Assembly (NCBI GenBank): GCA_041619515.1
Contig: JBFKDW010000017.1
Coordinates: 1 to 44,670 of the forward strand
DNA from: Acidimicrobiia bacterium
Lineage (GTDB): Bacteria > Actinomycetota > Acidimicrobiia > Spongiisociales > SHLN01
Direction: 5' to 3'
DNA: 44,670 nucleotides
The notes beneath the pieces are model-generated. The model did no database searches, was not told where the DNA came from, and was given only the letters and a program-made list of their open reading frames with translations. Made by a program: the position numbers and the translations under genes. Of the stretch, positions 26,977 through 44,344 are shown piece after piece; positions within the stretch are counted from its first letter, which is position 1; each line of letters starts with the position of its first letter.

Positions 26977-29904
26977 ATGGGTGACCGGAGGCGACCAGGC
27001 TTCATCACGTTCGTTGCATTGCTGGTGATGGCAGCGTTCATGCAGCCGGCGGTGGCAGAGGGCACGGGCGACGCGTCCATGCTGCAGACCGACTGTGCCA
27101 GCCCGCCGGCCATCATGGCGGTCGACGACCTGGCTGCGGGCATGACCGGCAAGGCGTATACCACCCTGTCGGGCCGCGAGATCTCTGAGTACGATGTCGA
27201 GATCCTCGGTGTGCTTCCCAATGCCGTCTACCCGCTCATCGACTTGATCCTCGTCAGAGCGTCCGGTCCGGCCCTGGAAGCGGTCGGCGGGATCGCCGGA
27301 GGCTTCTCCGGCTCGCCGGTCTACGTCGACGGCAAGCTGATCGGAGCCATCGCCTACGGGTTCTTCGGCAACGCCTTCCTCGCCGGGATCACACCGGCCG
27401 CCGCCATGATCGACATTGCCGGGTTCCCGCCCTCCGGGGCTCCACTGCTGAATGCCGGGGGCACCGAGGCGCTGGCGATGATCGAGTCTGCGGTCGGACC
27501 CGTGGGAGCGCCCCAGGCGCTCCCGATTCCCGTCGGTGTCGGGGGTTCGGCTCGCCTCATCGCGGAGCTGCAAGCCGAGGTCGACGCCCGCGGACTGCCG
27601 CTGCGGCTGTTCCCGGCGACGGCTGCGGGAAACACCGGAGGAGCCGACTCGTCCTCGCCGGGTGAGGTGCGCCCGGGTGAGCCTATGAGCGCGGTGCTGA
27701 GCGAAGGCGACTACTCGGCGTTTGCGACCGGCACCGCCACCTACTGCGACGGCAGCACGGTCATCGGCTTCGGCCATCCATTGCTCTGGACCGGTGAGGT
27801 CATGATGAGCATGAACGAGGCCGACGTGGTCACCGTGGTGGAAGACTCCACCGGCTTCGGCAACTTCAGGCTCGTGACTCTCGCCGAACCGGCCGGCCGC
27901 ATCGACTTCGACGGCAACGCCGGCGTCCGCGGCATATCCGGTCAAGCGGCTCCATCGGTGCCCATCACGAGCCGCGTCGAGTTTGCCGAGTACGGCGCCA
28001 CCCGCCAGGGCAGGACGGATGCCTACATGAGTGACGACCTGTCATTCAGCCTCGGCTTCACGTCCGCCATCCATCTGCTCACCAACCTCGACTTCGTGTC
28101 GGGCACCGGTTTCCGGCCCGGCAGCAGCGCAGTCGAGTGGACGGTGGAGGGAACCCGTCAGGACGGCTCGCCCTTCAGCGCCTCGTTCGACAACAAGTAC
28201 TGGAATCCGTTCAGCATCACCGACTCGAGCATCTTCGAGATGACCTCGTTCATCGACCTGTTGCTGTTCAACTCCTTCGAGGATGTCGACGTGACTGCAG
28301 TTGATATCGGCGACGCCCAGTTGTTCACAGATCGCCGCACGATCGACATCAAGAATGTCCAGGTGTCGACGCCGTCGAACCCGGAGCCTGTTTCGCAGTT
28401 CGGGTTCCTGGAAGCCCAGCCGGGTGACACCCTGACGGTGGAGGCGACACTGCAGCCGTTCGGGGGCGACGAATTCGTCGAGACGATCGAGCTGGAGATC
28501 CCGGGAGATTTCCCGGGAGGATTCGGATCACTCTCCGTCAGGGGCGGAAGCAGCGACTTCTTCTTCTTCGACCCCTTCTTCGAAGGGTTCCTACCCGGCG
28601 ACGTGTCCGATTTCGAAGGGCTCCTCGACTACCTCGAGAGCCGGGACCACAACTACGACCTGGTTGCAGAGCTCACTCTGTTCGAGGAGGGGTTCGCCGG
28701 GGAGCCGCCGCCGGGGGAGGGGGAGCCCGAGCCGCCGCCCGAGCCGTTCATCGATGCCAATGGCCCGATCGGCGACGACACCGTCAGCGTCAAGGAAACC
28801 GTCGAGTTCGACGCCGTCGTCACCGGCAACGCCTTCTTCGATGTCAACGTGTTTGCGGAGCCGCCCCCCAATGGGAACATCCTCCAGGCCGAGCTGTCCG
28901 GCATGAACGAGACCGGCCCAGGGGATCCCGACGGGTTTGGCTTCGCCGAGTTCTTCATCGAAGGAGACACCGTCCTGTTCGACATGACGCTCGAGAACGT
29001 AGACGAGCCCGTCATCGCCGCCCACATCCACGCCGGAGAAGCCGGCGTGGACGGCCCGGTGGTGCTGAATCTGGATTACGAGGCCAATGGTCTGAGCGGC
29101 GCGGTGTTCGCCGATCCGTTCTTCCTGGAAGAACTGCTCGCCTTCCCCGAGTCGTTCTACGTCAATGTGCACTCCGAGGCATATCCCGACGGGGCGGTCC
29201 GGGGTCAGCTGATGAGGCCTCCGCCCGACATCGCGGGGAGCTCGACGCTGGCGTACGTCTCGCCCTCGGGCCTGTGGCGGGTGGAGGGCTACGAGCCCTA
29301 CTACTTCGGGGTGGCCGACGATGTCCCGTTCCTGGGTGACTGGGATGGCGACGGCGTCAAGACGCCCGGGCTGTACCGGCCCGCAGACGGGTATGCCTAC
29401 ATCCGCAACTCGAACGACACCGGGGTGGCCGACGCTTCGTTCTTCATGGGCATGGAGGGCGATATCCCCATCGTCGGTGACTGGGACGGAGACGGTACCG
29501 ACACCTTCGGGGTGTACCGGCCGGCGGAAGGCAAGGTGTACCTGCGCAACAGCAACGACACCGGGACCGCCGACGTCGAGTACTCGTTCGGCATGCCGGG
29601 CGACGTTCCGTTCGCCGGCGATTTCGACGGAAACGGCATCACCGACGTCGGTCTCCATCGCACCACCACCGGTCTCGTATACATGCGGTTGACGCACACG
29701 ACCGGTCCGGCCGACCTCGAGTTCTTCTGGGGCGTGGGCGGAGACACCGTCCTGGCCGGAGACTGGAACGGCGACACGGTGGACACGGTCGGCTTGGTGC
29801 GTGCGTCGGAGGGAATGTTCTATCTCCGCAACGACAATTCCACCGGCATAGCCGACAACTTCTGGCCCCTCGAGGTCGAGGGCTCCCGGGTGATCGTCGG
29901 CTAG
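26977..29904 (+). CDS. Secreted SpoIVB/S55-like peptidase with CHRD domain and GDWDGDG repeats (paralog 1)
   Basis: Signal peptide; GGIAGGFSGSPVYVDGKLIGA (S55 serine motif); GT.TY....IGFGHP; CHRD (AHIHAG...GPVV...YVNVHS..YP.GAVRGQL); four C-terminal GD(W/F)(D/N)G repeats. Confidence 0.85.
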   Translation: MGDRRRPGFITFVALLVMAAFMQPAVAEGTGDASMLQTDCASPPAIMAVDDLAAGMTGKAYTTLSGREISEYDVEILGVLPNAVYPLIDLILVRASGPALEAVGGIAGGFSGSPVYVDGKLIGAIAYGFFGNAFLAGITPAAAMIDIAGFPPSGAPLLNAGGTEALAMIESAVGPVGAPQALPIPVGVGGSARLIAELQAEVDARGLPLRLFPATAAGNTGGADSSSPGEVRPGEPMSAVLSEGDYSAFATGTATYCDGSTVIGFGHPLLWTGEVMMSMNEADVVTVVEDSTGFGNFRLVTLAEPAGRIDFDGNAGVRGISGQAAPSVPITSRVEFAEYGATRQGRTDAYMSDDLSFSLGFTSAIHLLTNLDFVSGTGFRPGSSAVEWTVEGTRQDGSPFSASFDNKYWNPFSITDSSIFEMTSFIDLLLFNSFEDVDVTAVDIGDAQLFTDRRTIDIKNVQVSTPSNPEPVSQFGFLEAQPGDTLTVEATLQPFGGDEFVETIELEIPGDFPGGFGSLSVRGGSSDFFFFDPFFEGFLPGDVSDFEGLLDYLESRDHNYDLVAELTLFEEGFAGEPPPGEGEPEPPPEPFIDANGPIGDDTVSVKETVEFDAVVTGNAFFDVNVFAEPPPNGNILQAELSGMNETGPGDPDGFGFAEFFIEGDTVLFDMTLENVDEPVIAAHIHAGEAGVDGPVVLNLDYEANGLSGAVFADPFFLEELLAFPESFYVNVHSEAYPDGAVRGQLMRPPPDIAGSSTLAYVSPSGLWRVEGYEPYYFGVADDVPFLGDWDGDGVKTPGLYRPADGYAYIRNSNDTGVADASFFMGMEGDIPIVGDWDGDGTDTFGVYRPAEGKVYLRNSNDTGTADVEYSFGMPGDVPFAGDFDGNGITDVGLHRTTTGLVYMRLTHTTGPADLEFFWGVGGDTVLAGDWNGDTVDTVGLVRASEGMFYLRNDNSTGIADNFWPLEVEGSRVIVG

Positions 29905-31086: not shown

Positions 31087-31355
31087 CCGTGACGATCACC
31101 ATACCGACGATGCTTGCCAAGCTCGTGAACGAAGGCCGCAAGCATCAGGTGGAAGCCGACACCGTCGACGATGCGATCGAGGCGCTGCTGCAGGAGTTCC
31201 CCGAGCTGCGGGTCCATCTCTTCGGCGAGGGTCGGTCGCTGCGTCCACATGTTCGCTGTTTCCACAACGATGTCCTGGTGGCGGATCGGTCATCGCCCAC
31301 CCGCGACGGCGACACCATCACGCTCCTGCAGGCTGTCTCGGGCGGACTGCACTGA
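31083..31355 (+). CDS. MoaD/ThiS family ubiquitin-like (beta-grasp) protein
   Basis: IPT.L, TV.DAI..L...FP.L...L, LRPHV..F.N, GD.IT.L.AVSGG followed by LH. Overlaps the BNR gene stop. Confidence 0.88.
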   Translation: MTVTITIPTMLAKLVNEGRKHQVEADTVDDAIEALLQEFPELRVHLFGEGRSLRPHVRCFHNDVLVADRSSPTRDGDTITLLQAVSGGLH

Positions 31356-31380
31356 CCCGCCGGGTTCCTGGCCGTCACAG

Positions 31381-31923
31381 CTAGCTGCCCCGTACGGTGG
31401 AGACAACGGCCATGGCGGCGTCGAGCATGGCTTCTTTCTCCGCCTTCACCTCGGGCAGGTTCCGCAGGGGCCGCCACAGTGTCCCGAGGGCGGCCGATGC
31501 CCCGAGCCGGGCCGCCGAGGAGCGGTCGTCGCTGCGGATCGCCTGCCGCACCCGCCGATTGGTTTCGGCGAGCCGCTTTCCGAGCAACGGATGGAGGAGC
31601 ACGGCCGTGTCGGCGTCGATCCAGATGACGAGCTCACGATGGGCGAGCAGGACATCGAGATAGGCCGACAGCAGCTCCCGGCCCTGATCGGGCCACGAAG
31701 GATGGCGCGGGAAGCGTTCGAGGGTCTCCTCGAGCTCGCTGAGGAGGGGCTCGACCAGCTCGATCAGCAGCTGCTCTTTCGACTCGAGGTGGTAGCCGAA
31801 GGCAGCCTTGCTCATCCCGAGCCGGGCGACGACGTCTGCCACCGAGGCGCCCTCATATCCGGACTCTTGGAACGCTTGGAGGGCTGCCGCCAGCAGCTCC
31901 GCCCTGCGGCTCTTTCTCGCCAT
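31381..31923 (-). CDS. TetR/AcrR family transcriptional regulator
   Basis: R.ELL.AA...F...GYEGASV.DVV..LGMSKAAF.YH..SKE.L helix-turn-helix. TAATAT lies 7 nt before the ATG. Confidence 0.92.
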   Translation of the reverse strand: MARKSRRAELLAAALQAFQESGYEGASVADVVARLGMSKAAFGYHLESKEQLLIELVEPLLSELEETLERFPRHPSWPDQGRELLSAYLDVLLAHRELVIWIDADTAVLLHPLLGKRLAETNRRVRQAIRSDDRSSAARLGASAALGTLWRPLRNLPEVKAEKEAMLDAAMAVVSTVRGS

Positions 31924-31934
31924 AGCGACGATAT

Positions 31935-32006
31935 TACTGGCCGCACGTTCAGAAATTTCGCGTCCTCTGGAATACTTGACGAACGTTCATTAATTAGGCG
32001 TATACT
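31935..32006. promoter_or_regulatory. Divergent promoter region with two candidate TetR operators
   Basis: tactggccgcacgttca (31935-31951) and tacttgacgaacgttca (31973-31989) match at 14/17. The second overlaps TTGACG (31976) of a TTGACG-19-TATACT (32001) promoter. Confidence 0.6.
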
Positions 32007-32076
32007 CGGATCGAAAGGGCGAGGTTCGGCAAGCAGGCATGGCGGGATACCGCCGGCCCTAGTGAATAGGAGAATC

Positions 32077-34989
32077 ATGCGCAATCGGCGGTCCTTCGTG
32101 ACCATCGCAGTTTCAGTCTTGATACTGGCGGCGTTCATGCAGCCGGTCGGGGCGGAGGGGGGTGGCAGCGCCTCCATGCTGCAGACGGACTGTGCCAACC
32201 CGCCGGCCATCATGGCCGTGGAGGATGTCCATGCCGGCATGACCGGCAAGGCCTATACGACCCTATCGGGCCGCGATATCTCTGAGTTCGATATCGAAGT
32301 GCTCGGGGTACTGCCGGCGGCGGTCTATCCGCTGATCGACCTCATCATCATCGAGGTCTCCGGGCCCGCCGTCGAGGAAGTCGGTGGCCTCGCAGCGGGC
32401 TTTTCCGGCTCACCCGTCTACATCGACGGCAAGCTCATCGGCGCTTTCGCCTACGGCTTCTGGGGCAACTCCTTCGTTGGTGCTGTGACGCCGGCGGAGT
32501 TGATGCTGAAGCTGGGAACCTTCCCGGCGACCGCGGCCCCGCAACTGAGCAACGCCTCCCGGCAAGCTCTCGAACTCATCGAAGCCGCCGTGGGCCCGCT
32601 GGGTGTGCCCCGGGCATTGCCGACTCCGGTCGGCGTGACCGGAAGCGCTGAATGGGTCGAGAAGCTCCAGGCTCGCGCCGCCGACATGGGGCTGCCCATG
32701 ATCGTCTTCCCGGCAACCGGCTCCGGCAGCGGCGGGTCCACCTCCGGATCGCCGGGCGTCATCTTGCCTGGTGAGTCCCTCAGCGCCGTGCTGAGTGAGG
32801 GCGACAACGCCGCCTACGCCACGGGAACCGCTACCTACTGTGACGGGACGACCGTCATCGGCTTTGGCCATCCGCTCCTGTGGACCGGTGAGGTCAGCAT
32901 GAGCATGAATGAGGCCGACGTCATCACCGTCATCGAGGATTCCACCGGCTGGGGCAACTACAAGCTGTTCAGCCTGGGCGAGCCGGCCGGCCGGCTCGAC
33001 TTCGACGGCAACGTCGGGGTGCGGGGAATAGCCGGCGAGATGGCAGCGTCGGTGCCGATCACGAGCTCGGTCGAGTTCGCCCAATACGGGGCTACCCGTG
33101 ACGGCCGCACCGTCGCCTACATGGCCGACAGTCTCTTCTTCAGCCTTGGGTGGGTGAGCGCCGGGCATCTGCTCACCAACCTCGACTTCGTGTCGGGGAC
33201 CGGATTCCGGCCCGGCAGCAGCACCGTCGAGTGGACGGTGGAAGGAACGCGCCAGGACGGTTCGTCGTTTCGCGCCTCGTTCGACAATCTGTACTGGGAC
33301 TCGTTCAGCATCACCGACAACAGCATCTACGAGCTGGCGTCGTTCATCGACGTCCTGGTGTTCAACCCGTTCGAGGATGTGAAGATCACCTCGGTCGACA
33401 TCGGAAAGGCTGAGCTGTTCACCGATCGGCGCACCGTCGACATCAAGAAGGTGCATGCCTGGACGACGTCGAATAGCGAGCCGGTCCAGGACTTCGGATT
33501 CCTGCAGGCGATGCCGGGCGACCTCGTCACCGTCGAGGTGACCCTGCGGGCGTTCGGCCGGTCCGAGGACGTGGTGAAGACCCTCGAGTTTGAGGTTCCG
33601 GCCGACTTCGAAGGGGGGTACGGCTCCCTCTGGATTCACGGAGGCAGCAGCGACTACCTCTACTTCGATCCGTGGTACGACGATTACCTTCCCGGTGGCG
33701 CCGCCGACTTCGACGAGCTGCTCGCGTACGTAGAGGGCAGGGATCGTAACTCCGACCTCGTGGCCGAGCTCACCTTGTATCCGTCCTATGGCGTCGGGGG
33801 TGAGCCCGGCAATGGGCTCCCCGAGCCGCCGGACGGCTTCATTCCGACCAACGGCGGTGGCGTCGATACGTCCGTGCGCATCAAGGATGTCGTGGAGTTG
33901 GATGCCGTCGTCCGCGGTGACCGGTACTTCGACGTCGAAGTGCTCCCCGAGGTGCCCCCGGTCATGGGAACGCTGTATGCCGACCTGTCCGGCGCCAACG
34001 AGCCCGGCGGAGGTGACTCCGACGGAACCGGATCTGCCGTGGTGAGCTTCGAGGGGGACACCGTCACCTTCGACATCACCCTCCTGAACGTGGATGAGCC
34101 GATCACCGGAGCTCACATCCATGCCGGAGCTGCCGGCGAGGATGGCCCGGTGGTCGTCGATCTCGAGTTCGACGTGAACGGTTTGAGCGGGGTCGTCTAT
34201 GCCGACCCGTATCTGCTCGGGGAGATCCTGGCGTCGCCCGAGTTCTACTACGTGAACGTGCATTCGGAGGCCTATCCGGCCGGCGCAGTGCGTGGGCAGC
34301 TCTCCTATGAGGTCCCGCCCGAAGGGTCGACCCTCGCATACGTGAGCGCCGGCGGCCTGTGGCACGTCAGCGGGTACGAGCCGTTCTACTTTGGAGTGCC
34401 GGGAGACATCCCCTTCCTTGGTGACTGGGACGGCGACGGCGTCAAGACCCCCGGCTTGTACCGTGCGTCCGACGGATTCGCCTACCTGCGCAACACGAAC
34501 GACACCGGCATCGCCGACACGTCGTTCTACATGGGAGCGCCCGGCGACATTCCGATCGTCGGCGACTGGGACGGAGACGGCATCGACACCTTCGGCATCT
34601 ACCGGCCTGCGGAAGGCAAGGCGTATCTGCGCAACAGCAACGGCACCGGACCCACCGATGTCGAGTTCTACTTCGGTGTTCCCGGTGACATTCCGTTCAC
34701 GGGTGACTTCGATGGCAACGGCATCACCGACCTGGGCCTGCGCCGTGATGCGACGGGGTACGTGTACCTCCGGTTGAGCCATACCACCGGCATCGCCGAC
34801 CTCGCCTTCTACTGGGGCGTGTCCGGCGACAAGGTGATGGCAGGCGACTGGGATGGCGACGGAATCGACACCGTCGGCCTCGTCAGGCCGTCCACCGGGA
34901 TGTTCTACTTCCGGAACTCCAACGCCACCGGTATCGCCGACGGCGAGTGGCCGGTGGCCACCAGCCGCGGGTGGACCATCGTCAAGTAG
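32077..34989 (+). CDS. Secreted SpoIVB/S55-like peptidase with CHRD domain and GDWDGDG repeats (paralog 2)
   Basis: Collinear with 26977-29904 over its full length. SD aggaga before ATG 32077; GLAAGFSGSPVY, IGFGHP, CHRD and four C-terminal repeats. Confidence 0.87.
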   Translation: MRNRRSFVTIAVSVLILAAFMQPVGAEGGGSASMLQTDCANPPAIMAVEDVHAGMTGKAYTTLSGRDISEFDIEVLGVLPAAVYPLIDLIIIEVSGPAVEEVGGLAAGFSGSPVYIDGKLIGAFAYGFWGNSFVGAVTPAELMLKLGTFPATAAPQLSNASRQALELIEAAVGPLGVPRALPTPVGVTGSAEWVEKLQARAADMGLPMIVFPATGSGSGGSTSGSPGVILPGESLSAVLSEGDNAAYATGTATYCDGTTVIGFGHPLLWTGEVSMSMNEADVITVIEDSTGWGNYKLFSLGEPAGRLDFDGNVGVRGIAGEMAASVPITSSVEFAQYGATRDGRTVAYMADSLFFSLGWVSAGHLLTNLDFVSGTGFRPGSSTVEWTVEGTRQDGSSFRASFDNLYWDSFSITDNSIYELASFIDVLVFNPFEDVKITSVDIGKAELFTDRRTVDIKKVHAWTTSNSEPVQDFGFLQAMPGDLVTVEVTLRAFGRSEDVVKTLEFEVPADFEGGYGSLWIHGGSSDYLYFDPWYDDYLPGGAADFDELLAYVEGRDRNSDLVAELTLYPSYGVGGEPGNGLPEPPDGFIPTNGGGVDTSVRIKDVVELDAVVRGDRYFDVEVLPEVPPVMGTLYADLSGANEPGGGDSDGTGSAVVSFEGDTVTFDITLLNVDEPITGAHIHAGAAGEDGPVVVDLEFDVNGLSGVVYADPYLLGEILASPEFYYVNVHSEAYPAGAVRGQLSYEVPPEGSTLAYVSAGGLWHVSGYEPFYFGVPGDIPFLGDWDGDGVKTPGLYRASDGFAYLRNTNDTGIADTSFYMGAPGDIPIVGDWDGDGIDTFGIYRPAEGKAYLRNSNGTGPTDVEFYFGVPGDIPFTGDFDGNGITDLGLRRDATGYVYLRLSHTTGIADLAFYWGVSGDKVMAGDWDGDGIDTVGLVRPSTGMFYFRNSNATGIADGEWPVATSRGWTIVK

Positions 34990-37155: not shown

Positions 37156-38871
37156 CTAGGGAAGCTTGAAGGCGGCCGGGAGGTGCTCGTCGACCATGAG
37201 GGCGGCACTGTGACGCCCTAGCTCGGTGAGATCGTCCATGTTGGCCGGCCGGTCCATTTCGCCCAGCTCCCTGAGTCGCTTGGCGGAGATCTCCCGGCCG
37301 AGCTGCTCCTTGATCCAGCCGGGGGTGAGCTCGACGTTGTAGCGGCGGTAGGTGATGACCGGCTGCCCACCCAGCAGGTCCCCGGCCAGATCACCGATGT
37401 CGCCGTCGATCGCCCGGGCCGTGGGACCGTCCGACAGCCACTGCATGACCGTCTCGATGAGACTGCTGCAGTCGTTCATGATTGAGGTGAGCGCCACCAG
37501 CGCGTGCTTGCCGGCCATCCGCGACGGCATCGAGGACGGGTCGGCCGTCCCGGTGCCGCACGAGACGATCAGCAGCCGGTGCTGACCGGTCGGCCAGCCG
37601 ATGCCGAAATTCCCGAGCGTCACCAGCTTGAGTGCTTCGAAAGCAGGGTTGTTTGCCGTGCTGACCCCACCATCGACGAAGTTCCCCGGGATCCCGGGGT
37701 TGACTTCGATCAGCTCCGGGCCGAAGTAGTGGGGAGCGGCGGTGCTGGCTCGCACCACCTTCCGCAGCTTGTAGTCGGCGTTTGCCCGGCTGGTCGAGCC
37801 CGGTCGCTGGTGAAAATAGGTGGCGCGTGGATTGTTCGAAACCGGCCATTGGCTCCCTGTGTCGAGCCGCTTGGTCACTACCAGCAGACCGGTCAGCAAG
37901 TCGGGGCTGCCCATGGTCATGTCGTCGAAAAGCTCCTCGAGGGCCTTTTCGAGAGCAGTCGCGTCGAACTTGGCCCGGAACACGCCCCATCTCCGCCACG
38001 ACCGCCGGAACACGCTGTCGGCCAGCCGACGGTACTTCTCCTCGATCTCCGAGGCGTACATGCCGAGGGCCAGGCCGGCCGCAATGATGGAGCCGGTGGA
38101 GGTGCCGGCAATGAGGTCGAAGTAGTCGCTCAGCCGCAGCCCGGGCTTCCTGTGCTGATCCTGCAGGATCTTCTCGAGCCGCTTGAGGTACTGGAGGGTG
38201 AGGATTCCGCGCACGCCGCCACCGTCCAGGCTGAGGATTCGTTTGGCTCCCCCGCTACGTGCGAGGTGGACGTCGCGAGGGAACGGCTGGATCGTGGTCG
38301 GGTTGATGATCGCGGAGTGGTCGGGCTGGAGCATGCCGGCGGCCGCGGCTGCCAGGTCGGAAGTGCCCCCCGGCCCGTCGCCGCTCGGAAGTTCGTCCCA
38401 CACCAGCAGGATGAACAGCTTGCCGGCACCGCCGGCTTCGGCGCGGGCGGCTTCGAGCAGCCACCGGTTGTTGCGGGCGTAGGGGCTTTCGCCGGCGGGG
38501 AGGGCGCCCAGCTCGTCGGTCTGGAGTCGGACCTCGGCATGGGCGATCAGCCGGTGGAAGCGGCGCTCCCAATCCGACCCGGGCAGCCGAACCGACTCCT
38601 CCACGAAATCGTCGGTGTTCGACGGCAGCAACACCTGTACCCGGGCGCCGCGCCCTGAGCAGATCTCCGCAAAAATGAGGTCGGCGCCGCGCGCCCCCCC
38701 ACACAGGGCGGTGTCACCTGCCCCGACCCCCCACTCGTCAAGCTGGGCCGCCATGCGCGCCCGCACCGCCTCTTCCTTGACCGGGGGAAAGCGGGCCGCC
38801 GCTCGGTCGGGGGCGTCGACCATATGCCCGCTGCACAGAAACACGCGCCCTGTCGGGTGCGGTCCGGCCAT
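37156..38871 (-). CDS. Patatin-like phospholipase with N-terminal SLOG-like (YpsA/DprA-fold) domain
   Basis: Patatin motifs ILSLDGGGVRG, FDLIAGTSTG (GxSxG), VRASTAAP.YF and FVDGG..NNP. The N-terminal ~195 aa has SGH, GGARGAD...E, VLLP, Y..NN.WLL and LVWD...GPGGT. Start ATG 38871 follows ggaaagggg; ATG 38931 is also possible. Confidence 0.82.
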   Translation of the reverse strand: MAGPHPTGRVFLCSGHMVDAPDRAAARFPPVKEEAVRARMAAQLDEWGVGAGDTALCGGARGADLIFAEICSGRGARVQVLLPSNTDDFVEESVRLPGSDWERRFHRLIAHAEVRLQTDELGALPAGESPYARNNRWLLEAARAEAGGAGKLFILLVWDELPSGDGPGGTSDLAAAAAGMLQPDHSAIINPTTIQPFPRDVHLARSGGAKRILSLDGGGVRGILTLQYLKRLEKILQDQHRKPGLRLSDYFDLIAGTSTGSIIAAGLALGMYASEIEEKYRRLADSVFRRSWRRWGVFRAKFDATALEKALEELFDDMTMGSPDLLTGLLVVTKRLDTGSQWPVSNNPRATYFHQRPGSTSRANADYKLRKVVRASTAAPHYFGPELIEVNPGIPGNFVDGGVSTANNPAFEALKLVTLGNFGIGWPTGQHRLLIVSCGTGTADPSSMPSRMAGKHALVALTSIMNDCSSLIETVMQWLSDGPTARAIDGDIGDLAGDLLGGQPVITYRRYNVELTPGWIKEQLGREISAKRLRELGEMDRPANMDDLTELGRHSAALMVDEHLPAAFKLP

Positions 38872-39061
38872 TGTGCCCCTTTCCTGTCCCTCCCGCCGTG
38901 TCGGGCATGGTACTGCCGGCGCGGGCTCCACCGGGGGGCGCTCGATCCGAGGGCGGCAGCGCCGAGCTGGGCATAGATGTCAGGCCGTGGTGTAGGGTCG
39001 GAAGCAGGGCTGCACGGCAAGATCCGTGGCGGCGGAAGGGTTCTCAAGGGAAGGGGTCACC

Positions 39062-41329
39062 ATGGGACTCGGTCATTTCACTCCGCCGGCGCTTCCCGGC
39101 CAGCCGGCCGAGTTGGACCTCGTGGTTTCGTTCCGCTACAACGCCACCGACGTTCAGAAGAACGATTGGAGGAACTTGCTGGAGTGGGCCTCCAACATGC
39201 TGTTCGAGGCGACCGAGGGCCAGGTGCGGCTCGGCAAGATCGTCTACGGCAACAACCTGGCCGCTGAGAAAGCAGCCGACATCTGGCTGCACGACACGTC
39301 GATCACGGCGAGCGCCCACTCGGGCGGCGTCGGGCTCGGAGCCTGGGAGGTTCACATCGAGCTCGGCCTCGACACCCTCGGCCAACCCGGTGCTCCACCC
39401 CAGGCGGGCAAGCCGGGGCAGGCGGTGCACGAGCTCGGCCATCATGCCCTCGGCCTGGGAGAAGAGTACGACCCGCACTGCATGCCCGACCTGGCCACCG
39501 CCGAAGCGGCTGGTGCGTGCATCATGCAGTACGGGTCGAGGAGCATCGAGCGGAACCTGGACGGGTCGGCCTCGTGGTCTCCGTTCGCCCCGCCGATCAC
39601 CGAGTTCTGCCACGGCAACCATGAGACCGCCGGGGTGACGCACCAGAGCCTCATCAACAACGGCCAGTCCTGTGCGGAGACCGTCGTCTACAGCAATGTC
39701 GCCGCCATGACTCCCCGCTACCCCGGCGCGGCGCCATTCGCCGATCCACCCGTCCCAGCCTCTACGGCGGCGGTCCCGGCGAAGCACTCGATCGGATGGC
39801 TCGAGCTCGACCGCCAAGCGCGGTTTGCGCTGGTACTGGACGTCTCGGCCAGCATGCAGGCCCGGAGGGCAATCGACGGCGTGAAGTACGGAGCCGACTT
39901 CTGGGTCGACCTCGAGGTTCTGCTCGGCAGCCAGCTCGCGATTGTCTCCTACGCAACCACGGCCGCTCCGGTGTTCGGCTTGGCCCCGGTCACCCAGGTA
40001 GCCGCCACGGCGATACACACCTCCATCGGCAACCTTGCCGCCACCGGGTTCTCCACGAATATCCGAGCCGGGCTGCAGGCCGGTGAGGCGCAGGTGACGC
40101 CGGCCGGTGCCCCGGCCGCCGACCAGATCGTCATTCTGTTCTCCGATGGGCGGCACAACGAGGGTCCCTGGCTCACCGACACCCAGCTGGCCAATCTCGA
40201 CGCCCCGGTCTACACGCTCGGGTTCGGAAACGCCGACCAGGCACTGCTGCAAAACGTCGCCACTCAAACCATGGGCGAATTCGAGATGATCGACGATCCC
40301 GGGGACCAGCCTGATGCCCATCTGGAGATCGTCACGGTGTTGTGTGCGATTGCCGCCAAAGCTCACAGCGGTCTGGTTTCGTTTCGGCGCGCGGTCCTGC
40401 CGGCGCCAATCCGACTCTGGCAGCTGCTGCGGCGCACGCTGCTGCGGAGAGGGGCTCGGGCCGGACGTGACCCGTCGCTACCTCGCTACAGCGGCCCCGA
40501 CCTGGCCGCGGTCGGTGCCATCAACCTGCGGTCCTGGGCGTCGCCGAGCGGCTTCGACCTCCCATCCCCGATCGAGGAGGGGTCGGTGCGGGCGACGTTC
40601 GTCATGACGCATCGGGCCGAGACGGCCGTCGACCTGTATCTGTTTCGGCCCAATGGTCAGATCGTCGGCCCGGGCGATCCCGACGTCGACATTGTCGCCC
40701 CGCCGGGAATGCCCTACGCCTTCTATGTGATCACCCTTCCTGCGCCTGGAGTGTGGCGGATGCGAGCGGTGCGCGGCCAGCCCGACGGATCCCTCCATGT
40801 CACGATGTTTGCGTTCAGCGAGAACCCGCACATCACCGTCGGCCTCACCGGCACCTCACGGGTGTATGCGGTGGACGAGCCGGTGAGGCTCAACGCCCAG
40901 ATATCAAACCGCTTCCAACTGACCGGTGTTTCGGCCGGCCTCACCCGGCCGCGTCGGGCCGACCGATCCAGTCCGCTGTGCCGATGGCTGAGCCGGTTCG
41001 CCGTCGTCAGGTGGCTGCTGCGGATCTGGCGGTGGCTACAGCGCCTGCTCGGGATCGGCCGGCGGCCACCCCAGCCCTTCACGGAGGAGCGGGTGGGCAA
41101 GGGATGGTATGGGCTCACGCTGCCGGGGTTCCCCAGCCCCGGGTCGTACGATTTCATCGCCGAGTTTGCCAGTGATGGAAGCGCCACCCAAGCGCTCGAC
41201 GAGGGCTTGGCGGATCAGGCCGGCATCCCGCTGCCGGTTCCGTACCAGCCGCCGGAATTCCGCAGGCTGAAACGTTTTCAGATTCATGTGGGTGACCCCG
41301 GACTTCCGATCGGCGAGGACACGGACTAG
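39062..41329 (+). CDS. CLCA-like zinc metallopeptidase with vWA and beta-sandwich domains
   Basis: ASNMLFEATEG, HELGH...LGEEYD (HExxH...E), CIMQY...ITEFC..NH...Q......SC.E; vWA LVLDVSASM (DxSxS), STNI..GL, ILFSDG..N, VYTLGFG; DLYL.RP.G...P.PG.W. Confidence 0.8.
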   Translation: MGLGHFTPPALPGQPAELDLVVSFRYNATDVQKNDWRNLLEWASNMLFEATEGQVRLGKIVYGNNLAAEKAADIWLHDTSITASAHSGGVGLGAWEVHIELGLDTLGQPGAPPQAGKPGQAVHELGHHALGLGEEYDPHCMPDLATAEAAGACIMQYGSRSIERNLDGSASWSPFAPPITEFCHGNHETAGVTHQSLINNGQSCAETVVYSNVAAMTPRYPGAAPFADPPVPASTAAVPAKHSIGWLELDRQARFALVLDVSASMQARRAIDGVKYGADFWVDLEVLLGSQLAIVSYATTAAPVFGLAPVTQVAATAIHTSIGNLAATGFSTNIRAGLQAGEAQVTPAGAPAADQIVILFSDGRHNEGPWLTDTQLANLDAPVYTLGFGNADQALLQNVATQTMGEFEMIDDPGDQPDAHLEIVTVLCAIAAKAHSGLVSFRRAVLPAPIRLWQLLRRTLLRRGARAGRDPSLPRYSGPDLAAVGAINLRSWASPSGFDLPSPIEEGSVRATFVMTHRAETAVDLYLFRPNGQIVGPGDPDVDIVAPPGMPYAFYVITLPAPGVWRMRAVRGQPDGSLHVTMFAFSENPHITVGLTGTSRVYAVDEPVRLNAQISNRFQLTGVSAGLTRPRRADRSSPLCRWLSRFAVVRWLLRIWRWLQRLLGIGRRPPQPFTEERVGKGWYGLTLPGFPSPGSYDFIAEFASDGSATQALDEGLADQAGIPLPVPYQPPEFRRLKRFQIHVGDPGLPIGEDTD

Positions 41330-41334
41330 CGCAG

Positions 41335-42447
41335 TCACGATCCGGAGTAACGGATCGTGAAGTCACTGTTGAGATCTCTCGTGAACTCGAGGTTCCGCGT
41401 CGGTATCCGGCTGCACGACCCTGCCGGAGAGCCGTCATCCGCAAAGGTGGCGATGACGAAGGCCAGGACGCCCGGCTCTCCCGGCGCCGGGCTTCCGCCC
41501 ACGGCGCTGAACCCTCCGGGGAATTCGTCCTGGCAGTCGATCCGCAGCGGCTTTGCCAGCTGCACGTTGGCGGTGGTGAGGTTGACTGTGGGCGTGAAGG
41601 CTTTTCCATCGATTCTGATACCCGCCGAGGTGTCGAACACCATCGTCAGCGAATGGGGGGCTCCGTCGTAGGCGAGGCTGGTTGGAATCGGAGGGTTGAA
41701 GTAGGTCCCCGGGGCCGTGCCCTGACGGGATCCCATCCCGGTGGCGGTGAAGAAGAATTCGCCTATGGCCGCAACGTCGAATCCATCGCCTCCGCCGACC
41801 AAACAGGTGGTCGTCCCGTTCGGCGGAATGGGCCCAGCCACGGTGCAGACGTCTGTGCCGAGCGGACCGGGGTCGGGCGCGGTCCCGGCAACCTCGACGT
41901 CGACGAGCGTGCCGAGCGAGTCGAGGTTGTCGATCGTGAATTGAATCCAGAACTTCCCCGGCTTCAGCGTGGGGACTTCTGACCGATGGCCCGCCAGCTG
42001 CCACGGACCGTTCGGGCTGTTTGCAACCCGAGCGAGGATCCGGAATTCGGGGTCGACTCCCGACGCGAACGCGAAAACACCCTCTGCAATCACGGCGGGA
42101 AGCGGCACGGTGGTAGTGGTGGTGGTTGCCGGACGGGTCGTGGTCGTGGTGGTGGCGGTGGTGGTGCTGGTTGTCGTTGTGCCCGCAGGCGGGGCCGTGG
42201 TGGGAGGAGGGTCGTCGCCGTCTCCGTCACCGTTGCCGTCACTGGTCCCATCGCCGGTGATTGTGGGAGGTGCCGGGCCGCCGGTGGTGGTCGGATCGCC
42301 GTCGAGGGTGGGCGGTGGCACCGTTCCGGTAGCCGATGTCGGAGCAGGGCGAGAGCTCGAGGTCGTCTCACCGGTCGAGTCGCCACAGGCAGTGCCGATG
42401 AGGACGAGGACCATAGCCAGGGCCGCGAGCCGGATGGTTGTGCTCAT
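41335..42447 (-). CDS. Putative lipoprotein with Thr/Pro-rich linker
   Basis: MSTTIRLAALAMVLVLIGTAC lipobox, long T/P/GD low-complexity stalk, then a beta-rich region with four Cys. 55 bp separate it from the upstream TIR gene. Confidence 0.75.
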   Translation of the reverse strand: MSTTIRLAALAMVLVLIGTACGDSTGETTSSSRPAPTSATGTVPPPTLDGDPTTTGGPAPPTITGDGTSDGNGDGDGDDPPPTTAPPAGTTTTSTTTATTTTTTRPATTTTTTVPLPAVIAEGVFAFASGVDPEFRILARVANSPNGPWQLAGHRSEVPTLKPGKFWIQFTIDNLDSLGTLVDVEVAGTAPDPGPLGTDVCTVAGPIPPNGTTTCLVGGGDGFDVAAIGEFFFTATGMGSRQGTAPGTYFNPPIPTSLAYDGAPHSLTMVFDTSAGIRIDGKAFTPTVNLTTANVQLAKPLRIDCQDEFPGGFSAVGGSPAPGEPGVLAFVIATFADDGSPAGSCSRIPTRNLEFTRDLNSDFTIRYSGS

Positions 42448-42502
42448 GGCATTACCCCTTGTGCGCGTCCGCCCTTTCTGAGTCTACGCAAGCTCCCAGA
42501 AG

Positions 42503-44344
42503 CTAGGAGCTCTCGCACCGAGCGCGGGGGAGAGGGTCCTGGTCGTCGGCCGCTCTCTCTTCTGCGCTGCGGGCGTACGCGGCGTCCGCCGCGTCCGGAT
42601 CGGCGAGAACACACTCGTAAATGAACCCGATGGCCGCATGAAAACGGGCCCGCTTGCCGGCTTCCAGGCTGACCTCGATGGCGATCCGGTATTCGTCGAC
42701 CGCCGCCTGCGGATCACCGTTCGCGAAGTGATATGCCGCCAGGCTCTGGTGGGCGTCCGCTACGAGGTTGCGCAGTCGATCGTTGCTGCTGTTCTCGGCA
42801 ATCACGCTCTCGAACTGCACCCGCGCCTCCTCCAGGAGGTTCTCTCCGTATTGGTTCAGACAGAGATAGATGCGACCGATTTCCAGCTCGGCCCGAGCCG
42901 GAAGGAAGGAGAGGGGCGGTGCGTCCATCCCGGTGACGTTCCGGAATTGGTCGGCGGCCTGGCCGAGAGCGCCCGGGTCGGCCGGTTCAGTGCCGGGCCC
43001 GCAAGCAGGACCCTTGTTTTCCTGGAACTGCACCTCGGCGAGGCCGAAGTGGCTGCGAGCGTAGGTGGGGTCGATGGCGAGGGCGCGTGAGTAATAGTCC
43101 CGGGCTTCGGCCAAATAGGTCTGGGCGTCGCTGGGCCGGTCGGCGGCCAGGTGTCCGGTAGCGTTGCCGAGCAGGTGGAAGACGACTTCCTTTCCCGTTT
43201 CGTTGCCCTGCCAGGCTGCTTCGGCATCGAGGAAGTGTTCCCGGGCGATCTCGTAGTCGCTGAGTGCGTAGTAGCTGAGGCCAACCACGAGCTCGGCGAC
43301 GGCCTCGGCCTGGGACTCGAGGACCGCAGAAACCTCTCTTGTGACCGCTACCGGGTCGGTCGTCGGCAATTCGATCAGCCCGAATGAATAGGCGCCTGCC
43401 AGCTCTTCGGCATTGCGCAGGTTCCGGTCGGATAGGTACAGCTCGGCAGAGAACACGCTCACGCCCGACCCTGCGTCGAGGTTGCCGAAGAGCACCACGT
43501 CTGCGTTGATCTTCTCGGCGAGGTCTCCGGCCTCACGCGTCCTGGCCTCCAGCGTTGAACCGTCGATGCGTCCGATGGTCGCAGGATCGGCAACGGCGAG
43601 GTTCTCGAAATCACCTGCTTGTTCGAACTCGAACAGCTTCTGACTGATACTTCGATGCGCGGCGTCGGCGATCCCGCGGGCGGTCGCGTCGTCGGCCTGA
43701 TTCGTGGTGCCGAACTGGGCTACGGCAACATTGAAATCACCGAGCAACGGACTGAGACCACCGCCGATCAGGGTGCCGACAACGAGTACGGCCGCCGCCA
43801 CCAGCCCCCCGGTAACCGCCAGCGACGGCAGTGGATGTGATTTCAACCATCTCGCCATACGCGGCCGCCCCCCGATCTCATCAATCAGGTGGTCGACGTC
43901 GTCGTCGAACCGGGCATTTCGTATCTCTGCGGTCTGGAGAAATGCCATGGGGCGGATGGATTCGGGAAGCTCGCCGGGGGAAGGCATTGGTGCCCCGTCG
44001 ACGAGGACCGGCATGACGACGTGATCCGGCTGGGCCATGGCCATCTCGACTTCGAGGCGCACGTAGTCCCCTGGGTCGTCGAGACGCCGTTTGCCGTCGG
44101 CGTCGGTGAGCGAAGTCCAGTCGGGTCCCATGACGACCAGCGTGACATCGCTGGCATCGATGGCTTCTTGGACCCGCTGCACAAAATCGACGCCGGTGCG
44201 TATCGTGTCGACGTCTCGGAACACGCGGCCTTTTCCGTAGTGGTCGGTCAGCCGGTCATAGATCCTTCCTGCGGAGCCCTGAGCGTCGTCCCGGCGGTAC
44301 CCGATGAAGATGCCCGCAATCGAACCTCCTCGCCTTCCCCACAT
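42503..44344 (-). CDS. TIR domain - transmembrane helix - TolB_N/CsgG-like - TPR protein
   Basis: IFIGYRRDD...GRIYDRL...VFRDVD.I..G.DF...I..S.V.LV.MG..W...DYVRLEV..A...V.PVL (TIR_2 type); one hydrophobic helix; FNVAVAQF...NADVVL.G; TPR-like helices (A..YY.RAL.IDP.YA.SHFGLA). Confidence 0.85.
   Translation of the reverse strand: MWGRRGGSIAGIFIGYRRDDAQGSAGRIYDRLTDHYGKGRVFRDVDTIRTGVDFVQRVQEAIDASDVTLVVMGPDWTSLTDADGKRRLDDPGDYVRLEVEMAMAQPDHVVMPVLVDGAPMPSPGELPESIRPMAFLQTAEIRNARFDDDVDHLIDEIGGRPRMARWLKSHPLPSLAVTGGLVAAAVLVVGTLIGGGLSPLLGDFNVAVAQFGTTNQADDATARGIADAAHRSISQKLFEFEQAGDFENLAVADPATIGRIDGSTLEARTREAGDLAEKINADVVLFGNLDAGSGVSVFSAELYLSDRNLRNAEELAGAYSFGLIELPTTDPVAVTREVSAVLESQAEAVAELVVGLSYYALSDYEIAREHFLDAEAAWQGNETGKEVVFHLLGNATGHLAADRPSDAQTYLAEARDYYSRALAIDPTYARSHFGLAEVQFQENKGPACGPGTEPADPGALGQAADQFRNVTGMDAPPLSFLPARAELEIGRIYLCLNQYGENLLEEARVQFESVIAENSSNDRLRNLVADAHQSLAAYHFANGDPQAAVDEYRIAIEVSLEAGKRARFHAAIGFIYECVLADPDAADAAYARSAEERAADDQDPLPRARCESS

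Follow-up and report, generated by a model that had tools for sequence, protein, structure and literature searches.

A described system which comes close to the locus treated here is type I Thoeris, composed of the TIR protein ThsB, the signal 3'-cyclic ADP-ribose (3'cADPR) and the SIR2-SLOG protein ThsA. The locus comprises four adjacent genes, A to D, on a contig of 44,670 nucleotides from an Acidimicrobiia bacterium (GCA_041619515.1, contig JBFKDW010000017.1; G000:C17 in our numbering). The entire contig is called the window, and its source genome, G000, is 95.65% complete. The original prediction, made from the sequence alone, saw here a Thoeris-like module in which a membrane TIR protein (D) signals to a SLOG-patatin effector (A), with a CLCA-like zincin-vWA protein (B) and a lipoprotein (C) beside them. 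Its list of parts stands: all four genes are intact open reading frames (ORFs) in the order -,+,-,- along the window, with the domains and catalytic-position residues claimed for them. Like type I Thoeris the locus has both a TIR that retains the catalytic Glu and a putative effector that carries SLOG. Unlike it, the effector is a patatin instead of a SIR2 protein, the SLOG domain is modelled as YpsA-like, and D is a predicted single-pass protein with a SARM1-like TIR_2 domain which is separated from A by 3.6 kb and two genes and forms no two-gene operon with it. The ThsA model gave no match in PADLOC or NCBIfam, the ThsB model reached only 21 bits, and PF08937 did not match D. To our knowledge the characterised Thoeris systems use soluble TIRs which sense phage inside the cell.

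Two other Thoeris effectors, SLATT (ThsH, type VII) and CMP hydrolase-TPR (ThsI, type VIII), respond to canonical cADPR (bioRxiv 10.64898/2025.12.03.692087). SLATT and TPR-S are usual neighbours of the A family (8/39 and 23/39 loci, see below), but A has neither SLATT nor CMP-hydrolase-TPR, only patatin by Pfam and SLOG; TPR-S sits in partner genes of A relatives. The word patatin is absent from the main text of that survey, which has unnamed phospholipase effectors in its Fig. 1 and Table S1. CapV of CBASS (cyclic oligonucleotide-based antiphage signalling system) is a patatin activated by cyclic GMP-AMP (cGAMP), and A shares its patatin fold and catalytic dyad; unlike CapV, A scores only 126 bits with NF041079 (cut-off 200) and carries an extra SLOG domain, and no CD-NTase (cGAS/DncV-like nucleotidyltransferase) was found among the 30 window ORFs scanned with Pfam.

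Burroughs & Aravind are said to have described, in 2020, assemblies centred on TPR-S ('Tpr') with YpsA-SLOG, patatin, LSDAT and TIR. A later collection of 78 operons includes 5 YspA-Tpr and 4 patatin-Tpr assemblies (bioRxiv 10.1101/2023.05.26.542521). In these assemblies a TPR-S core is accompanied by YpsA-type SLOG, patatin and TIR, and A likewise joins a SLOG domain of predicted YpsA type with a patatin. Unlike them, A has no TPR-S or hydrolase part, its SLOG being fused straight to the patatin; the locus has no TPR-S gene, and the nearby TIR is a predicted membrane receptor. Animal Toll-like receptors have leucine-rich repeats (LRRs) outside the cell, one transmembrane (TM) helix and a cytoplasmic TIR. 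D would share with them and with SARM1 an outside repeat domain, one TM helix and a cytoplasmic TIR, nearest to that of SARM1. It differs from Toll-like receptors in that the ectodomain is built of TPR and alpha/beta parts and not of LRRs, the partner is a lipoprotein and the NADase Glu is kept. The CLCA metalloproteases, finally, are recognised by the consensus HExxHxxxGxx(D/E)EY followed by a vWA domain (PMC3650047); B has both in this order, and differs in that B and 15 close relatives have no signal peptide and in the scarcity of the CLCA domain PF08434 in its family.

By the features tested the locus is neither type I or VIII Thoeris nor CBASS. A literature search gave no description of a SLOG-patatin fusion, although some places which could list one lay outside that search, namely key TPR-S papers and Fig. 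1 and Table S1 of the 2025 Thoeris survey; nor did it give a bacterial TIR-TM-TPR receptor or a D-C-B trio, and this receptor trio is apparently undescribed. The best explanation, to which we give slightly more credence than doubt, is that the locus juxtaposes two modules which are inherited separately and probably share the same chemistry. The division itself, with A as module 1 and D, C and often B as module 2, is highly probable.

The SLOG-patatin protein A and its family

The first 195 residues of A match no Pfam family and were therefore modelled from 79 aligned sequences. The best structural match of the AlphaFold2 (AF2) model (pLDDT, the predicted local distance difference test, 92) is Bacillus subtilis YpsA (2nx2; Z 15.6, root-mean-square deviation (rmsd) 3.6, 164 aligned), which also ranks first in Foldseek. 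Behind it follow DprA and LOG proteins, all of the SLOG superfamily, and the SLOG domain of ThsA (BcThsA, 7uxs) is found at rank 33 (Z 6.0, rmsd 4.4, 129 aligned). On this model the domain has the predicted SLOG fold, of YpsA type rather than ThsA type, and the motifs SGH, GGARGAD, RNN, WD and GGT are kept in the alignment of 79. The idea of a ThsA-like sensor was not borne out; the conserved partners of this SLOG are TPR-S proteins and patatin. The patatin domain of A (PF01734, E 1.8e-32) has its catalytic motifs intact, with the Gly loop at 216, Ser258 in GTSTG and Asp400 in DGG (571-aa numbering), and the closest solved sequence is CapV 8zr9 (phmmer E 4.5e-23). On viral contigs scanned with the A alignment 0/39 pattern matches were confirmed.

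Of the 186 relatives of the A SLOG domain the best 120 were considered: 7 carry patatin (one being the window's own cluster); most of the others are TPR-S proteins (PF20308) of which SLOG is the C-terminal domain. When one genome of each species was scanned with patterns drawn solely from the SLOG domain, 41 loci emerged, 39 of them with a SLOG match; locus genes were called by a heuristic, Pfam was run on 208 selected ORFs, and hidden Markov models (HMMs) were built from Pfam-annotated segments. A patatin lies within 5 kb (<=5 kb) in 26/39, a count which may be somewhat favoured because tblastn confirmation of the 41 loci used the whole A protein. TPR-S is present in 23/39 and fused to SLOG in 15, a TIR in 12/39 (7 of them within 5 kb) and SLATT in 8/39; in 2/39 SLOG is fused to patatin. 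On a patatin tree of 44 rows the fused label requires 3 changes, in all 200 bootstrap trees, which fits repeated fusion; the alternative may be one gain and two losses. Judged by these gene arrangements, A would be the fused form of a two-gene SLOG/patatin arrangement known from widespread predicted TPR-S conflict cassettes, where a [hydrolase-TPR-S-SLOG] protein normally appears to adjoin the patatin. Three other fused loci were read, and one of them, L018, has an adjacent TIR.

Several loci of the family deserve mention for their composition. In Rhodobacterales (L043, L047, L049, L051, L052) a stand-alone SLOG gene is divergent from a patatin and a TPR-S gene, with SLATT adjacent and a TIR-nSTAND1 gene about 9 kb off. 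L144, a locus of 22 kb whose SLOG and patatin genes belong to the clade sister to A, has six TIR matches and resembles a defence island. A cassette in L091, L092, L118, L113 and L117 consists of an alpha/beta hydrolase, TPR-S-trypsin, an M15 peptidase with a peptidoglycan-binding domain, TIR and stand-alone SLOG.

The SLOG family of A is tied to TIR genes at family level. The count covers those published genomes of the order that have a SLOG match, 32 in number; G000 was left aside, as was an unpublished genome. TIR_2 occurs <=5 kb from the SLOG match in 22/32, where 0.3 are expected (92 matches in 96 Mb). The TIR is followed by a TM helix in 17 of these 22; 3 are truncated where their contig stops and 2 have none. 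Many of the linked TIRs are TIR-TM-WD40 genes behind a BTAD-cNMP-TPR-S-SLOG gene. This arrangement recurs in several families of the order (L215-L231, L119) as a gene of about 980 aa for winged helix-BTAD-cNMP-TPR-S-SLOG, behind which stand between one and three TIR-TM-beta-propeller genes.

In G000 itself a search with three TIR families found two TIR genes, D and one for a TIR-WD40 protein on contig C1. The TIR match of D lies 5.0 kb from the only SLOG match in the genome; the chance of a TIR so close to the SLOG gene is about 0.7%. The C1 gene (G000:C1:120674-125899, minus strand) codes for a TIR, a hydrophobic stretch and WD40, and by predicted architecture both TIR genes are of receptor type. 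Two co-oriented Thr-linker lipoprotein-like genes precede the C1 gene, echoing the pairing of D and C. G000 has a single PF20308 match, on contig C65 (L110:6266-9463, minus strand). The protein concerned, of 1065 aa, combines TPR-S with a patatin match that is split, and a regular expression found no GxSxG in it; its gene is a second effector-like one, from the same family of systems, in G000.

The membrane TIR protein D and its partners C and B

D matches TIR_2 (E 5.7e-12) and TPRs. Among solved structures its TIR is closest to SARM1 (Z 17.5 and rmsd 2.2 to 9hq0; sequence E 4e-14). Glu98, invariant in 12/12 aligned TIRs, aligns with the Glu of SARM1 DWVHKE, which we take to be the catalytic residue. 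There is one hydrophobic helix, residues 175-193. All four Cys of D lie on the side of it away from the TIR. Since the TIR side is net positive in 8/8 family members checked and relatives carry a Big_9 Ig insert after the TM helix, the TPR part should be outside the cell, and D is by its sequence a predicted single-pass receptor with the TIR inside and an alpha/beta part and TPRs outside. The matches in a fold search with whole D were taken up by TPR and TIR structures. With residues 200-345 the top matches in the ESM Atlas are unnamed clusters (0.92); TolB-N/CsgG follow at 0.85-0.86, a lead only.

C has a hydrophobic leader and Cys21, the latter present in 10/11 aligned relatives, as expected of the predicted lipoprotein. 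Its domain of ~255 aa matches no known family in Pfam and gave no usable match in the ESM Atlas. In the order the D ectodomain is matched in 14/301 genomes and the C domain in 12/301; both tallies count two unpublished genomes from which no conclusion is drawn. A C relative lies directly downstream of D, on the same strand, in 9/9 other published close loci (D match E <= 4e-64). These are found in 8 genomes of 3 other families (G189 twice, G136, G179, G297, G143, G131, G166 and G283), and five belong to one genus. Seven more distant D-like matches have no C match, and two C matches have no visible D beside them: that in G143 sits at the edge of a contig, and the other is weak (E 7e-4). In 300 genomes of the phylum the C alignment gave, outside the order, leader or linker matches only.

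B has a vWA domain (PF00092, E 8.7e-9) and the zincin motif HELGHHALGLGEEY at 123-136 (HExxHxxxGxxEEY), in which H123, E124, H127 and E135 are invariant in 23/23 aligned relatives and a Glu stands where the family consensus has Asp (DEY). The family profile matches the vWA domain of human CLCA (6pyo, E 4.6e-22). PF08434 does not match B itself and matches 1/23 relatives weakly (E 9e-4); Peptidase_M64 is matched by 7/23. A hydrophobic leader is present in 6/6 longer relatives checked; B is probably cytoplasmic because it has no signal peptide. Arg/Trp/Leu-rich inserts at about residues 452-470 and 640-672, absent from the family consensus, might be membrane-binding helices.

Any match to B is found in 7/301 genomes of the order, full-length only in G189, and the zincin part matched weakly in 1/350 genomes of the class. 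In G189 (contig C77) B abuts C tail to tail and B-C-D are arranged exactly as in the window, with no A on the 17-kb contig. Close relatives of B, and relatives of D and C, on contigs of equal length (22,489 bp: P0317, P0165, P0149; 84,426 bp: P0167, P0153) suggest the same trio in two further records.

One model which can be formulated from these data hypothesizes that the output of D is no messenger for A: D would deplete NAD (nicotinamide adenine dinucleotide) directly in the manner of SARM1, or signal to the protease B, and the SLOG domain of A would be a nucleotide hydrolase which dampens signals. It would explain why the recurring neighbour of D is B and not A, and it agrees with SARM1 being closest to the D TIR among solved structures and with the CHAT protease which replaces TIR on the same ectodomain in relatives, as a swap of direct effectors would. 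SLOGs of the LOG clade are enzymes, and viral YpsA-like SLOGs have been proposed to degrade cADPR (PMC9503650, where YpsA-like SLOGs are linked to its sensing or degradation). The model is at variance with the absence of B from most D-C loci, and the repeated SLOG-lipase fusion fits a sensor-effector design better; we find it very improbable.

The fusions with CHAT, a caspase-like protease, are L087:1-2409, L093:8805-11261 and P0164. The D-ectodomain HMM also gave a match in L031, which lies 10 kb away, has no blastp counterpart and was discarded as generic TPR.

One system or two modules

The original prediction took the four genes for one Thoeris-like system, with the reservation that they might be independent residents. 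As a dedicated system D would sense, A would kill and B and C would be accessory, and all catalytic residues are intact. The proximity of D to the only SLOG gene of G000, given above, speaks for it. So does genus g41, where, on 3 contigs, D-C precede genes for hydrolase, TPR-S-trypsin, TIR and SLOG in the same orientation. However, the set never recurs: blastp found B, C or the D ectodomain in 0/41 genome loci and 0/80 metagenome loci of A relatives (0/121; the metagenome loci being the best 80 of 502, with a median of 4.7 kb and SLOG visible in 36). In G189:C77 the B-C-D trio stands without A, the four genes of the locus do not share one orientation, and the SLOG domain is not of ThsA type. 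As a conserved unit the single system is largely refuted, and we regard it as very unlikely. B and C go with D, and the linkage which had been expected of SLOG-patatin homologues was found for TIR at family level and not for B, C or the D ectodomain. The reservation is right insofar as two separate modules are present; four independent genes they are not.

For the two modules we propose the following mechanism. In module 1 the SLOG domain of A would bind an ADP-ribose (ADPR)-type nucleotide made by a TIR, and binding would release the predicted lipase activity, with damage to the cell's own membrane. In module 2 an envelope stimulus, perhaps relayed by the lipoprotein C, would cluster D and thereby switch on NAD cleavage by its TIR; the ADPR-type product could be read by the SLOG domain of A. 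Of the candidate sources in G000, D would be the one most likely to supply A with a signal, and B might be a second, cytoplasmic output of D. SARM1 makes cADPR. The best guess for the ligand of A, by analogy, is canonical cADPR, because the SLATT and hydrolase-TPR effectors which are usual neighbours of the A SLOG family respond to it (Thoeris VII and VIII).

That A is gated by a TIR product we consider rather likely. Only two TIR genes were found in G000, so that any such signal would most likely come from D or from the C1 protein. Signalling from D to A is plausible because the SLOG family is tied to TIRs and D is one of these two; the wiring would be optional since each module occurs without the other. 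That D does activate A is possible, and here we lean somewhat towards doubt.

Several observations weigh against a functional tie between TIRs and A, and between the two modules. Among the 22 SLOG matches with a linked TIR, many are distant and partial (E 1e-7 to 1e-15) and belong to one BTAD-cNMP-TPR-S-SLOG family; related genomes in the 22/32 count are not independent; and the 17/22 TM-bearing TIRs stand without a background share of such TIRs in these genomes. Beyond the source order a TIR lies <=5 kb away in only 7/39 SLOG loci, and the fused loci L016 and L141 show no TIR, both being 4-kb contigs. The g41 cases with D-C and SLOG all come from one genus. No SLOG gene adjoins D-C at either G189 locus or in G136, and the latter genome, which is 96% complete and has D-C and 18 TIR matches, has no match to an A-type SLOG. 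As to the trio, equal record size is the only tie in the two additional B-C-D cases.

The simplest alternative is that the modules are neighbours only, in one variable region. A would then be a stand-alone or orphaned lipase which responds to another nucleotide or has the TPR-S-patatin protein of C65 as its partner. Each module does occur without the other, 13 genomes of the same family yielded neither D nor C, conflict genes are known to cluster, and the second TPR-S and patatin gene exists at G000:C65. What this alternative does not explain is that the SLOG family of A accompanies TIR genes far above chance and that both TIR genes of G000 appear to be of receptor type; we consider it unlikely.

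The preferred reading, two modules with probably the same chemistry, can be extended to the lineage. The Toll-like membrane TIRs (here TIR-TM-TPR and a lipoprotein as co-receptor; TIR-TM-WD40 in relatives) would turn an envelope stimulus into an NAD-derived messenger read by YpsA-type SLOGs, which gate interchangeable effectors, here a lipase. This extension is speculative and perhaps somewhat unlikely. If it is true, the conserved single-pass TIR receptor with its lipoprotein would bring envelope sensing within the range of TIR messengers, the messenger being triggered from outside the cell and not by an intracellular phage protein, as part of a supposed defence role; it would also provide a ligand for YpsA-type SLOGs. 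The SLOG-patatin fusion would be a handy single-protein reporter for such a ligand, with lipase readout against cADPR isomers. If the modules are unlinked, a variant of a predicted family and an apparently undescribed receptor trio remain.

Layout of the locus

The coordinates are collected in Table 1. The most likely starts, judged from the sequence, are ATG 38871 for gene A, which gives the same form as the entry in the protein collection, and ATG 39062 for gene B. A and B are transcribed divergently, and no sigma-70 consensus was found in the 190 bp between them.

Table 1. Positions in the window of the four genes, their main domains and the A/B intergenic region.
Feature	Position	Strand	Description and basis
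Gene A, 571 aa	37156..38871	-	Predicted YpsA-type SLOG + patatin phospholipase fusion; no TM helix
A SLOG domain (residues about 8-195)	38287..38850	-	79-sequence alignment, AF2 model, fold searches
A patatin core (residues 213-414)	37630..38235	-	PF01734, phmmer to CapV 8zr9, motifs
A/B divergent intergenic region, 190 bp	38872..39061	no strand	Sequence
Gene B, 755 aa	39062..41329	+	CLCA-like zincin 123-136, vWA 257-404, C-terminal region; no signal peptide
Gene C, 370 aa	41335..42447	-	Predicted lipoprotein Cys21, Thr/Pro linker, about 255-aa domain
Gene D, 613 aa	42503..44344	-	Predicted cytoplasmic TIR, one TM, predicted outside alpha/beta (about 200-330), TPR solenoid
D SARM1-like TIR domain	43886..44311	-	Glu98 codon begins at 44053
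D TM helix (residues 175-193)	43766..43822	-	Hydrophobicity, flanking charge, Cys placement

No tRNA was found in the window, and the insertion site is undefined, the flanking gene not being found in 5 genomes of the same genus. The GC content is flat across the window (64-70%). Elsewhere in the window two paralogous proteins with SpoIVB S55 peptidase and CHRD domains (26977-29904 and 31171-34989, plus strand) flank a BNR-repeat gene.

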